Virus record (IMG/VR): IMGVR_UViG_3300046810_000370 | Span: 1,891-65,890 of that record | Reading direction: 5' to 3' (one strand) | DNA: 64,000 bases | Source of the DNA: a virus | Lineage: Duplodnaviria; Caudoviricetes | Shown: one piece after another, positions 51,255-55,000 of the stretch | How the letters are laid out: every line of letters starts with the position of its first letter | Position numbering within the stretch: position 1 is the stretch's first letter | Made by a program: the position numbers and the translations under genes | Notes under the pieces: model-generated | Told to the model about the DNA's origin: nothing | Database searches by the model: none | Seen by the model: only the letters and a program-made list of their open reading frames with translations

Positions 51255-52054
51255 CGGCCGCCCTTTCCGCTCTTGGCGGCCTGCTGGGAGGCAGACAGTG
51301 GGTCGCCCCAGTTCGAGGCGCGGGGGCCGATGAATCCGGGCTTGGCCTCGTACCGGTTGCCGCCCGTCGGGGTCGGCAGCAGCGTCACGGTGATCGTGAC
51401 CTGGCAGCGGGAGGGGATCATCTCCTGGGTCCAGTGGGTGTACTGGAGGTCCAGCGACTGGATGACGCCGTAGTAGGCCAGCGACGTGCCGATCACGACG
51501 TACACCGGTACGTAGGTCATGGGGCCGGCTGGACCGTTGGTGTACTTGCCCTTGTTGAACGCTTCCTTGAAGGCGTCCGCGTCGGCGCTGTTGTCGTCGG
51601 TCACCGGCATCGGAGTGGCGATACCGGTGATCTTGTAGAGGGAGAGGATGTCGTAGGCCACGCCGAAGAACGGCACCATCGTTGCCGCCTCGCCATACAG
51701 TTTCGACGGGTCCCACAGTTCGTAGGTCCGGTCGAAGAGCAGGCTGAAGGTCAGCGACTGCTGGAGAGGCAGCAGCGTCTGTCCGGCGGTGACGTCGTTC
51801 TTGTCGACCGCGTTCGGGTCGGACAGGACGTTGGCGTCGATGCCGTGGGAGATGTTGATGGTGCTCGGGTTGTAGAGGAAGTTGCACCGCTGGCGGGCGC
51901 CGTTTACCGGCTTCTCCTGGATGATGAATCCACGGGTCAACTTCTTTCCGCCCGAGCCCGTCACCCAGTCGGTTCCGCCAAGATTCTGCGTGAACGGAAT
52001 CGAGGTGATCCGAGGGTCGAAGGGTCCGTTGTCGACGATCTTGCTGGCAGCCAT
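51251..52054 (-). CDS. tail tube initiator-like protein
   Basis: FLYNPSTI, FSLLFDRT; between tape measure and LysM gene. Confidence 0.6.
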   Translation of the reverse strand: MAASKIVDNGPFDPRITSIPFTQNLGGTDWVTGSGGKKLTRGFIIQEKPVNGARQRCNFLYNPSTINISHGIDANVLSDPNAVDKNDVTAGQTLLPLQQSLTFSLLFDRTYELWDPSKLYGEAATMVPFFGVAYDILSLYKITGIATPMPVTDDNSADADAFKEAFNKGKYTNGPAGPMTYVPVYVVIGTSLAYYGVIQSLDLQYTHWTQEMIPSRCQVTITVTLLPTPTGGNRYEAKPGFIGPRASNWGDPLSASQQAAKSGKGGR

Positions 52055-52086
52055 TACTCGGCCGCCCAAGTATGAAGTCGGTTCAT
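52054..52086 (-). CDS. 10-codon linker ORF MNRLHTWAAE
   Basis: TAATG overlaps at both ends; in-frame CTT-CAT-ACT. Confidence 0.6.
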   Translation of the reverse strand: MNRLHTWAAE

Positions 52087-55000
52087 TAGTTACCTGCCGC
52101 GATGAGGTTGATTCGGTTGTCCTCGGCGATGGCCGTCATGATCTGCTGCGCAGCATCACGGGCGGACTGGGAGTCCATGGAGCCCTGCACCTTGACGGTG
52201 ATGGCGCCGGCGTTGAAGTGCAGGGTGGCCGCACCACCCTTGGTATGAAGCCCGCTGACGCTGGACATGGCGTTGTTCCCGGCCAGGACGCTACGGATGG
52301 CCTCGGCCTGGAAGGCGGGGATGATCATCTCGCCCTTGTGGATGCGGGCCGTCTGGTCGACGTCCACGTTGGTGGAGCCGACCGCGTACCCCTTGTAGCC
52401 GCCACCGTTGTTCATGCTCTTGATGCCTGGGACGTTCGCGAGCGACCCGTATCTCGAATCCGCGTAGCGCACACCGGCGATTATGTTGTCGACCGGGTTC
52501 CAGATGTCCTTGTGACCCTTGATCGAGTAGTGATTGAACGTGGAGTCGATGGTCTGCATAATGCCCTTGGACGGATGACCGGCCTTGGCATTCGAGTCCC
52601 AGTTGTTGATCGCCTTGGGGTTGCCGGCGGACTCGTGCTGGATCATCGTGTTGACGATCCGCTCATTGGACTTCGAGTCCTTCTTGATGATTCCCAGGGC
52701 GGTCTTAATCCACGTCGCGACGCTTCCCTTGGGCATCGCGCCGGAAGGTGCGCCGTTGTCCGAGGAGTCCTTCGAACCCTGGCCGGAGCCCACGCCGGAA
52801 CCGACGTTGGCCGCGCCGATCGAGGAGACGCCGGCCGCGATGGCGTCGACTTCCTCGGTGGACCCGTAGGCGCCGACGTCTCCGCCGAAGCCCATGGTGG
52901 ACAGGCGATTGTCGCCGGAGCCGGCCTGGTTCTCGCCGTCCCCGCCGGTGATGTCGCCGAGGTTGCCGACCGCACCCAACACCCGCACGGCGTTGGTGAA
53001 CTCGCCCGGCTTGAAGGACCGCACGCGGACGTTGGCACCCGTGTGGGGCGCCTCGATGATCCTCCCGTTACCGATGCACATCACGACGTGGTGCGCAGGG
53101 TTGCCGTTGAAGAGCAGGTCGCCCGCGCGGACGTCGCTGAGTTTGACCTTCTTCCCGGCCTTCTGCTGCTGCGCGGCCGTACGGGGAAGGGAGACGCCGA
53201 TCTGCCGGAAGGAGTACATCAGCAAGCCCGAGCAGTCGAAGCCCGTCTTCGGGCTGGCGCCACCCCACTTGTACGGGGTGCCCAGGTACTTCATCGCGAT
53301 CTTGATGACGGCAGCAGCCGTCTTGCCCGCGCCCTGCGTACCCGTCGCCTTCACGCTGGAATTGCCCGTGCCGCTGGCCGCAGCCGGACCACCCGAAGCA
53401 CCGCCCGCACCACCGAAGGCGCCGAAGGCACCGATGCCCGCACCGATCACACCACCGACGGCAGCACCGATACCGGTACCGATGACCGGGACGACGGAGC
53501 CGATCGCGGCACCGGTCAGCGCACCCGTGCCAGCGTCCACGGCCACGTGGCCCCACTTGTTGCCAGTCGAGCCCTTCTTGCTGACCTTGTCGACCAACTG
53601 ACCGCCGAAGTGGTGAGTGCCCAACGCGGCAACGCCGAAGACGCCGGCAGTGCCCAAGGCAGCGGCGGACAGGTCAAGTGCACCGGCCGCACCAGCACCT
53701 CCCAGTGCGCCTCGGGCGGCGCCCAGGAGGCCGCCTCCGCTGCTGCCGCCCATGCCGGCGAGGCGGCCGACCGAAGCCAGACCGCGCATCGTGCCGTACG
53801 CGCCGATGCCGGTGCCGATGCTGGAGCCCAGCACGGATCCCGCGCCACCACCCCAACCCATGGCGTCGGACACATGCAGCGTCTTGAGGACGCTCTGAAG
53901 CCCGGTGGAGAACATGTCCAGGTACTTCGTCGCGGTCTGGAGTCCGCTGGTGAAGCCGTCGTTCTCGTTGACGTCCTGGTTGCGCAGGGTTCCCGCGCGG
54001 GTCATCAGGGTGTTGGCGGTCGAGCCACCTATCCCCCACTTGCCCAACTGGCCCTGGGCGGAGTTCTTCGCCCCCTGGGTCTTGCCGTTGTCACGCTGGT
54101 TGGCGGTGCTGACGTAGGCCTGGGCAGACGCCCCGTGGGTCTGCGCGAGCATCATGCCCTTGAGTTCGCCCTTGACCAGTTCGAGGGTCTTGGGGTCCAT
54201 GCTCCGGGCGAGGGAGACCATGACACCGGAGTTCGGGTTGTCGAGCGTCCCGGATATCTGCTCAGGCGTCTTGATGCTCTTCAGCGACGGCCACCGCTGG
54301 AGGACCTGCTGGGCGATCTGTCGCGGGGTCTGCTTCTGCCCGCTCTTGATCGTCTGAATGCCGATGGCCTGGTTGGAGTAGTACGAGCCGGCGGTCCACG
54401 CTGCGGCCGTGCCCTGAGCACGCGCCTGCTCGGACATCCCCGGGTTCATGTAGCCCGAGGTGCCCTTGACGTAGTTCCACTGCTGGTTGAAGGAGGACGA
54501 GCCCGACGACAGGCCGGTCCGGCCCAGGGTGCTGTAGGCCTGCCCGGCGTCCTGGGTGGACTGCGCGGTGAAGTTGTTCTTGAAGGCCTGGTCCCGCAGC
54601 GTGTGCCAGGACGAGGAGGAGCCCTGTGCCGCCTGGTAGGCGGTGGACTGCATCGTGACCTGGTCGGGCAGGATCTTCTGGCCCCACGAAACGACCCCGG
54701 TCAGGCCCTTCTTGAGGGTGTACTGCGAGGGACGGCCGCCGTTGTTGCCGGAGCCACCGCCGAGCCGTGGGGTGTTCGTGCCACCGCCACCGCCGTTGGT
54801 GCTGCCCTGGCCGCCGTTGTTGGTCGCACCGCCGCCCTGCGAGCCGGTGCCGGAGAAGGTGGCACCGCCACCGTTGCCGTTGCCAGCAGGTGTTCCGGTG
54901 CGCCCCTGGCCGCCGTTGGACCGACCGTGGGCGTAGTTGCTGGTGCCGTTCCACACGTCGCCGACGGCCAGGCCCAGGCCACGGGAGCGGGACATGTTCC

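Follow-up and report, generated by a model that had tools for sequence, protein, structure and literature searches.

A motif-bearing ten-codon open reading frame overlapping both of its neighbours between the tape-measure-type and tube-initiator-like genes of an uncultivated phage

Introduction

Genes whose stop and start codons overlap (UAAUG, AUGA) can be coupled by termination-reinitiation with a masked start, as in trpE-trpD and between the coat gene of MS2 and its lysis and replicase genes. Here we describe a ten-codon open reading frame (ORF), the linker, that lies between a tape-measure-type gene and a tube-initiator-like gene of a virus of the Caudoviricetes (IMG/VR record IMGVR_UViG_3300046810_000370). 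The stretch analysed, called the window, comprises 64,000 nucleotides (nt), bases 1891-65890 of a 65.9-kb record that is rated 66% complete. The linker resembles termination-reinitiation systems in its overlaps at both ends, its weak Shine-Dalgarno element and a downstream ATG located in a hairpin that an upstream ribosome would have to open, and sister phages use a plain one-step overlap at the same junction. It differs from them in that a separate ten-codon ORF forms an intermediate step and carries, in a fixed frame, a 9-mer that occurs genome-wide.

Regulatory leader peptides and upstream ORFs of the ermC, tnaC and secM type form a second group of comparable systems. Like these, the linker is a short ORF whose peptide is free outside a small core, sister mini-ORFs have their own AGGAG, and translation of the linker would control access to the next start. 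Unlike these, no alternative-pairing attenuator is evident at the junction, and the conserved element is a nucleotide word common to about 30 ordinary genes instead of a nascent-peptide arrest sequence. By analogy, the linker may work like a two-step termination-reinitiation with a masked start, with an added likeness to leader ORFs.

Frameshift and pause cassettes consist of a slippery site, a spacer of 5-9 nt and a stem-loop; CUU is the slippery codon of the +1 sites of prfB (CUU-UGA-C) and Ty1 (CUU-AGG-C). The linker shares with them a short invariant sequence kept in one frame and a hairpin that begins 5 nt past the codon presumed to be in the A site, which is within the 5-9 nt range. It differs in having neither a slippery heptamer nor a conserved open frame, and in that dozens of copies of the word occur per genome in essential genes. 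Primase entry signals of the G4 type place a recognition word beside a hairpin on a single-stranded template, the primase setting the specificity. The word-next-to-hairpin architecture here would fit such a signal and the variant of the word tracks the primase clade, a correlation confounded with the single origin of the clade that carries the A variant (CTTAATA); the uneven spacing and the mini-ORFs are unlike such signals.

The stoperators of Cluster A mycobacteriophages are sites for the phage immunity repressor, which blocks elongation there. They are numerous asymmetric sites oriented with transcription, and their consensus differs between relatives together with the phage factor (PMC6550527; PMC9283540). 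As far as these features of stoperators are described there, the present motif is similar, with many asymmetric copies, 33 of 33 on the sense strand, and a lineage-specific consensus. Unlike stoperators its sites are frame-locked in ORFs, each has a hairpin of free sequence and intergenic copies lie in mini-ORFs; hairpins and frame-locking are not among the stoperator features in the passages of PMC6550527 that describe them. Our literature search returned unrelated papers only, with no description of the motif (CTTAATACC, CTTCATACC in phages) or of motif-bearing relay ORFs.

Results and discussion

Anatomy of the junction

The genes around the linker are all on the minus strand according to the ORF calls in this part of the window. 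Read on that strand the junction is ...GCA GGT AAC TAATG AAC CGA CTT CAT ACT TGG GCG GCC GAG TAATG GCT GCC AGC..., in which the linker (52054..52086, minus) runs from the first ATG to the second TAA and encodes MNRLHTWAAE in ten sense codons. Its ATG (52086-52084) shares a base with the stop codon TAA of the tape-measure-type gene (52088-52086, as read from the sequence), giving TAATG at 52088-52084, and its own TAA (52056-52054) shares a base with the ATG of the downstream gene (52054-52052), giving TAATG at 52056-52052. The stop-start overlap characteristic of termination-reinitiation coupling is therefore present at both ends of the linker, and the two-sided relay containing the motif that the first-pass annotation had described is exact in the sequence. 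The 9-mer CTTCATACT (52069..52077, minus) is in frame and specifies Leu-His-Thr.

The 3' part of the junction forms a hairpin (52046..52066, minus) with a predicted energy of -13.8 kcal/mol, which starts 2 nt past the 9-mer and occurs in the centroid fold of the 91-nt junction. Its stem of seven base pairs joins the 5' arm GGCGGCC (52066-52060, minus) to the 3' arm GGCTGCC (52052-52046, minus), the latter consisting of the G of the downstream ATG and codons 2-3 of the next gene. The loop GAGTAAT (52059-52053, minus) contains the TAA and the AT of this ATG, which is thus positioned at the border between loop and 3' arm. Over ten linkers, 97.1% of 70 cells of the stem alignment are paired, versus 17-66% in slid registers. 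Compensatory double changes were found at two pairs (G-C to C-G in L037/38 and C-G to U-A in L033), changes in the 5' arm are matched by changes in the opening codons of the next gene, and the observed score was reached in 7 of 500 column shuffles. The 13 G-U cells among the 70 fit a structure of the sense RNA. Linker-less junctions show no structure around the start (-8.3 kcal/mol in L017, -5.7 kcal/mol in L034).

The downstream gene (51251..52054, minus) encodes a tube-initiator-like protein of 267 amino acids (aa). Its match to CIS_tube is sub-threshold only (E 6.7e-4, 19.9 bits vs a cut-off of 27), and identity to the 'late control D / minor tail' proteins of BRock-group Streptomyces phages is 33-39%. 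The Shine-Dalgarno-like element before its ATG is limited to GAG, 3 nt upstream. A TTG in the same frame (52067..52069, minus) could serve as an alternative start, the possibility that the first-pass annotation had set against its relay. This TTG is present in only two of 11 distinct linkers (L010 and L015), and linker-less relatives start the protein at the same ATG (MAASK... or MAT...), which supports initiation at the ATG.

The upstream gene (52086..55148, minus) encodes 1020 aa from its first start codon and ends AAGN-TAA. The ORF contains NlpC/P60 (PF00877, E 2e-24) and SLT (PF01464, E 4.6e-12) domains and matches tape-measure and minor-tail PHROGs. It has its own motif copy, CTT CAT ACC (G-L-H-T-K; 52242..52250, minus), in frame 55 codons before the stop and followed by a hairpin; at the orthologous position G002, G003 and G005 read CTTAATACC. 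The protein combines a peptidase with a transglycosylase domain, and its orthologue in BRock is annotated as 'endolysin'.

Linkers in related phages

A search with the downstream protein yielded 60 IMG/VR loci, and 33 related junctions were used for the linker comparison. A homologous linker is present in 16 of these, with 11 distinct sequences among them, and in the other 17 the two genes meet directly in TAATG or TGATG; among further loci L016 has a linker and L044 lacks one. In all 11 distinct sequences the linker ATG overlaps the tape-measure stop or lies 0-2 nt past it, the motif is in frame, and the linker stop overlaps the next ATG, the coupling taking the form TAATG, TGATG or ATGA. The neighbouring downstream proteins are only 53-100% identical. 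The two-sided relay is thus preserved in 11 of 11 distinct linkers.

The peptides vary except for a core R-L-H/N-T/I-W: MNRLHTWAAE, MRLHTRAVA, MRLHTWAVA, MRLNIWVAV, MRLNTWVAV, MRLNIWAAA, MTLLHTWTAE and MRLNTWLAV occur in addition to a 28-codon form in G004/L036, which ends TAATG and TGATG. Lengths are 9, 10 or 28 codons, and the Arg codon preceding the motif may be CGA, CGG, CGT or CGC. Indels within the linker are multiples of three only (+3, +3 and +57 nt), whereas the spacer before its ATG varies by non-multiples of three, from an overlap to 2 nt. The linker is accordingly conserved as an ORF with a varying peptide, as in leader peptides.

Presence and absence of the linker are scattered over the tree of the downstream protein in both variant groups, requiring at least four changes, with the qualification that our trees are of single proteins from mosaic phages. 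Sisters may differ: L036 has the linker and L034/35 do not; L033 has it and L043 does not. The linkers are alignable among relatives, and from these sequences the linker reads as an old element that was probably lost on more than one occasion; deletion between its two TAATG repeats is a plausible mechanism. The cultured phages BRock, GiJojo and pSt2308 have no gap at the junction between tape measure and downstream gene.

The motif and its reading frame

The sequence CTTCATA occurs 33 times in the window, always on the minus (sense) strand, against 1.40 copies expected and at most five in any of 100 shuffles. All 33 copies read CTT-CAT-AYN, and the conserved word is (not T)CTT[C/A]ATA[C/T][C/T], 9-10 bases. 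About 28 of the 33 are in the frame of a gene with high GC content at third codon positions (GC3), and three are in mini-ORFs (52077, 37173 and 21894). Whole contigs of relatives gave counts of 43/1 in G001, about 40 in G004, 29/0 in G003, 40/1 in G005 and 22/1 in G002, and frame 0 is kept by the copies in relatives' genomes too. One of these relatives, G005, carries a provirus flag in a genome record. Six sites confined to the CAT lineage are likewise all in frame 0. Spacing is uneven, with 27 copies in 36 kb followed by a 10-kb gap. Among the copies examined the only one clearly outside an ORF, at G001 59130, reads CTTCATAAC and is off consensus.

The first three tenths of ORFs are enriched in the motif, the counts by decile being 26, 33, 37, 15, 14, 13, 13, 13, 13 and 30, a tally in which orthologous sites are counted once per genome. 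The codons TCA (28) and ATA (34) are in the window about as common as CTT and CAT are outside the motif. A test of the frames by synonymous accessibility had too few accessible sites in any frame for power, and its two apparent 'frame-1' examples are gene-calling errors.

The minority strand has four consensus copies; each is sense and in frame 0 within a small reverse-strand ORF that has promoter-like and terminator-like flanks. Because the minority-strand copies are sense in reverse-strand ORFs, the signal appears to follow the gene and not the genome strand, an argument limited by the fact that gene direction and fork direction may coincide. The gene calls of our script were crude (longest ORF plus a GC3 threshold) and many 'minority-strand genes' are probably mirror ORFs. 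The four ORFs have 46-62 codons (G005 2181-2331, G002 ~28344-28524, G004 5313-5502 and G001 16800-16959), and those of G005 and G002 adjoin a reverse gene of about 695 aa.

Hairpins also follow the motif elsewhere. In the window the 36 nt after the 9-mer have a mean folding energy of -14.3 kcal/mol, compared to -8.5 kcal/mol at 2000 random positions (p = 2e-12). Among 207 copies in six genomes, 183 are followed by a hairpin of -7 kcal/mol or better, 150 of which start 0-2 nt after the 9-mer. These hairpins are made of free sequence.

Recurrence of the cassette at other junctions

Seven of the 33 window copies are separated by at most 13 codons from a following stop codon that adjoins or overlaps the start of the next ORF. 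At four of these seven (52077, 37173, 21894 and 20707) the stop-start is inside the hairpin, and at 15503 and 35185 it follows within a few bases after the hairpin. The copies at 37173 and 21894 lie in mini-ORFs that act as leaders and have an AGGAG each; the main genes behind them have none and start inside the hairpin. The initiator leader has 15 codons in five of five genomes despite very different peptides. In the six genomes, 44 of the 207 copies are within 14 codons of a stop, and 35 of these 44 have a start between -10 and +15 nt from that stop, 19 of them in the hairpin or at most 3 nt after it. The consensus copies that are intergenic are wrapped in a small ORF that preserves frame and two-sided coupling, with the next start inside the cassette hairpin.

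Three further loci are described here in their own right. At window 20687-20720 (minus; motif 20707) a 394-aa gene ends ...GLHTLAA-TGATG, which is exactly the layout of the linker: the 9-mer, 2 nt and a hairpin GGCCGCC/GGTGGCC, whose loop TGAT contains the TGATG stop-start of the next gene. A second two-sided linker is located past the primase gene in two close relatives, L150 and L149; in L150 (4954-5013) MHPMNNRLHTWAEAANASA has TGATG at both ends; its N-terminus resembles that of the window linker. In L149 (4963-5013) the same MHPMNNRLHTWAEAANASA ORF stands behind an AGGAG, and this Shine-Dalgarno element serves the mini-ORF and not the downstream gene. A-variant phages carry MTRLNTCPRKGDHR past the primase gene, and the window has there a 67-aa zinc-ribbon-like ORF starting at 32260 (MPYNKRRLHTCGKRRF...).

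The third locus, outside the window, is at L071 17884-17949 (G001) and at orthologous places in G002, G004 and G005. Here a motif copy ends an ORF (RLHT-TAG or RLNT-TAG) and pairs in a small hairpin with an anti-motif, CATACC with GGTATG in C-variant phages and AATACC with GGTATT in A-variant phages (four of four genomes). A larger hairpin and a masked Shine-Dalgarno element follow, upstream of a 228-aa gene with membrane and helix-turn-helix parts. Rfam searches gave nothing at gathering score in the window, and only sub-threshold, chance-level rows at the anti-motif locus.

Proposed function of the linker

The reading that we favour, which we judge to have about an even chance of being correct, is that the linker is translated and acts as a relay ORF, so that ribosomes have to go through one motif-hairpin cassette to reach the baseplate genes. 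It would be a free-standing copy of the junction cassette of this family, i.e., an in-frame 9-mer CTT-CAT-AYY, two bases and a hairpin. The anatomy of the junction, the conservation of the ORF, the covariation of the hairpin and the recurrence of the design point in this direction, and translation, reinitiation and gating would be the steps that follow. Ribosomes ending the tape measure would restart at the overlapping AUG and translate the 9-mer; once CUU occupies the P site and CAU the A site, the mRNA entrance would face the base of the hairpin, about 12 nt further downstream. They would then melt the hairpin, terminate at the UAA in its loop and restart at the overlapping AUG of the tube-initiator-like gene. 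A phage-specified reader that recognizes the 9-mer in either its C or its A variant could close off the block or reduce its expression.

The tube initiator would depend on passage through the cassette because its AUG is without a good Shine-Dalgarno element and would otherwise be locked in the hairpin, and the next three baseplate genes would depend on it because of their overlaps. These genes encode a Phage_tail_X-like protein (51254-50982, minus; PF05489), a GPD hub (50989-49841, minus; PF05954) and a protein of 1421 aa (49851-45586, minus), and the junction offsets downstream of the linker are -4, -8 and -11, forming a chain of overlapping genes at 45586..51254. The first-pass annotation had suggested a single gate for a coupled baseplate block and had counted only one further motif copy before 39152. 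That copy is at 49347, the only one between 52077 and 39152, and a single gate for the first four overlapping genes is plausible. After four genes the overlap chain gives way to gaps of 16, 50 and 7 nt, and about half of the relatives lack the linker, which speaks against a gate for the whole block.

More tentatively, the linker may be a purpose-built translational checkpoint, with a pause at CUU-CAU (CUU-AAU in sisters) in the P and A sites, while the hairpin stands at the mRNA entrance; a phage-encoded reader with switchable one-letter specificity would then decide whether translation proceeds. Within this extended version it is conceivable, and no less doubtful, that relay mini-ORFs wire genes or coupled blocks without an internal copy into the regulon.

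Several observations weigh against a translated relay. The linker is dispensable, since it is missing from 17 of 33 relatives, some of them sisters of phages that have it. The 91-nt junction as a whole folds no better than shuffled sequences (z -0.23), and in L025 the hairpin is not the minimum-energy fold. For the 207 copies the fold is equal on both strands (-12.55 vs -12.61 kcal/mol) and G-U pairs account for only 159 of 1827 pairs family-wide, so that the structure may, for the family as a whole, be one of DNA. Conservation of AYY after CTT CAT goes beyond what reading in the P and A sites alone explains. Furthermore, CTTAATA gives TAA in frame 1 and TTA ATA in frame 2, and therefore its frame 0 is forced by coding and needs no ribosome as reader; this forcing does not hold for CTTCATA. 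Finally, the C or A variant tracks the primase clade perfectly, which would suit a reader acting at the DNA level.

Variants of the motif and the case for a nucleic-acid reader

These points lead to the alternative that survives best, which we nevertheless consider rather unlikely: the cassette would be read as nucleic acid and not by the ribosome, and the mini-ORF would only be a patch that keeps the coupling. A cassette placed between two coupled genes would disrupt their coupling if it did not form an ORF with coupling on either side. Candidate readers are an RNA-binding protein and a nuclease, acting on the transcript; the cassette could also resemble a nut/Nun-type linear box with hairpin, be a stoperator-like repressor site, or mark where primase enters the displaced or lagging-strand template.

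Part of the evidence for such a reader comes from the variation of the motif. Loci with a downstream protein at least 49% identical have either CTTCATA or CTTAATA, never mixed within a locus, and the variant is uniform within each genome. Orthologous codons in A-variant phages were compared for 25 in-gene sites of the window: 17 read CTTAATA (LHT to LNT), six have ordinary codons such as CTGCACACC and CAGCACACC, and two sites lack an orthologue. This concerted one-letter switch from His to Asn at orthologous sites argues for selection on the nucleotide word, with the amino acid as a passenger, and the 9-mer is kept as a word of 9-10 bases with AYY included. The hairpins, being mostly Watson-Crick and strand-symmetric, agree with recognition as nucleic acid, as does the anti-motif pairing, which follows the variant in four of four genomes. 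Stoperators, as far as PMC6550527 describes them, set a precedent for asymmetric, transcription-oriented and lineage-specific sites.

The variant also follows the primase. Trees of a DnaG-type primase (~33267-32260; loci L139-L173) separate CTTCATA from CTTAATA phages perfectly, with all 17 A-variant loci in one clade (support 100/100). G006-type phages, which have the C variant, are mosaics in which the primase groups with C phages (98/97) and the hub protein with A phages (96/99). Because the variant follows the primase and not the hub protein, its determinant should be outside the structural module. Of the variable primase columns, 26 of 163 track the variant, 11 of the 26 in residues 77-114. 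The tracking extends to the mosaics, but it is confounded with the single origin of the A clade and could reflect no more than one emergence of the A variant within the replication module.

Other observations are difficult to reconcile with a nucleic-acid reader. Every consensus copy examined is in an ORF in frame 0, the copy at G001 59130 being off consensus, and the new sites of the CAT lineage are all in frame 0 as well. The leader ORFs have their own AGGAG while the main genes have none, and the Shine-Dalgarno element in L149 serves the mini-ORF. The uneven spacing would be odd for priming sites.

The motif is missing from loci at 30-38% identity and from cultured phages of the BRock group. 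In BRock it is not enriched (five forward and one reverse copies vs 12 and 2 for controls), and CTTNATAYC gave 0/5 in GiJojo, 1/6 in pSt2308 and 1/2 in LuckySocke. A megablast search of deposited phages found no close DNA relatives, and protein matches were to the BRock group only, at 33-39% identity.

Two candidate readers were rejected. No tRNA gene was found in the window; relatives share tRNA genes for Pro(tgg), Phe(gaa), Leu(caa) and Asn(gtt). In G001 an 86-nt tRNA-like gene with a long variable arm and anticodon GUG (L071 8973-9058, minus) is located beside the other four, and it is absent from G004, G002 and G005, which keep these four. A tRNA as reader of the motif was dropped since the GUG tRNA occurs in G001 and not in G004, both of the C variant, and hence does not track it. 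CAT and CTT occur outside the motif and are therefore not reserved codons.

The second candidate is a 125-aa protein (window 29461-29835, minus) that the first-pass annotation had called DUF4258/RelE-like. It has no Pfam or PHROG match. An AlphaFold model (predicted local distance difference test 64 overall, 83-86 in the core) gave weak but consistent matches of the RelE, colicin E5 and CdiA-CT type (E 0.009-0.8, template modelling score 0.35-0.57). The protein occurs in 38 related loci, with distant relatives in Streptomyces phages Faust, Annadreamy, Limpid and Blueeyedbeauty, and a GQ-x-RHV residue is common to both variants. As a variant-specific reader it was rejected because its tree mixes C and A phages, L132-135 (C) nesting among A phages.

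Other explanations

A nearly neutral origin, in which the linker is the leftover of a small duplication or insertion at TAATG, remaining an ORF through common descent, easily deleted between the TAATG repeats and without a regulatory role, seems improbable to us. The scattered presence and absence, with at least four changes on the tree of the hub protein, would agree with it. The G004 linker begins ATGGCTA like the downstream gene, which suggests a duplication of the junction, and the resemblance of MNRLHTWAAE to the post-primase MHPMNNRLHTWAEAANASA suggests copying of the cassette. A leftover would not be expected to retain start, frame, stop overlap and hairpin in 11 distinct sequences next to proteins that are 53-100% identical, to accept only indels of 3n within the ORF, or to have a 5' arm that covaries with the first codons of the next gene.

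The first-pass annotation had also noted that a -1 shift at the motif would be open into the downstream gene; in the window this frame is indeed open from upstream of the motif, whereas it is closed in A-variant linkers and in L031. A frameshift site, at which some ribosomes slip to produce an N-terminally extended tube initiator, is very improbable in spite of this open frame and the frameshift-like geometry of a hairpin 5 nt after the CAU codon, as there is no X XXY YYZ heptamer (CGA CTT CAT ACT), the downstream frame has a TAA inside the motif in six of six A-variant linkers and a TGA two codons before the ATG in L031, the position of the downstream gene would call for a -1 shift and CUU slips by +1, and about 40 in-gene copies per genome would truncate essential proteins.

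Implications

The phages of this clade are uncultivated, roughly 105-kb Streptomyces-type myophages, and the key question about them is whether the ribosome reads the motif-plus-hairpin signal. The relay mini-ORFs provide the sharpest comparative evidence on this point. The junction, about 60 nt long, could serve as a minimal test object for which nature supplies the controls: sisters with a direct TAATG, linkers of 9, 10 and 28 codons, and C and A versions. If the checkpoint exists, junctions with and without the linker, and linkers of the C and the A type, would amount to natural experiments on a hitherto undescribed level of phage gene control or immunity. If the linker acts as a gate, phages would have in it a novel means of setting or switching how much a block of structural genes produces. 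If it does not, the linker still illustrates how overlapping genes stay coupled after a nucleic-acid signal has come to lie between them.

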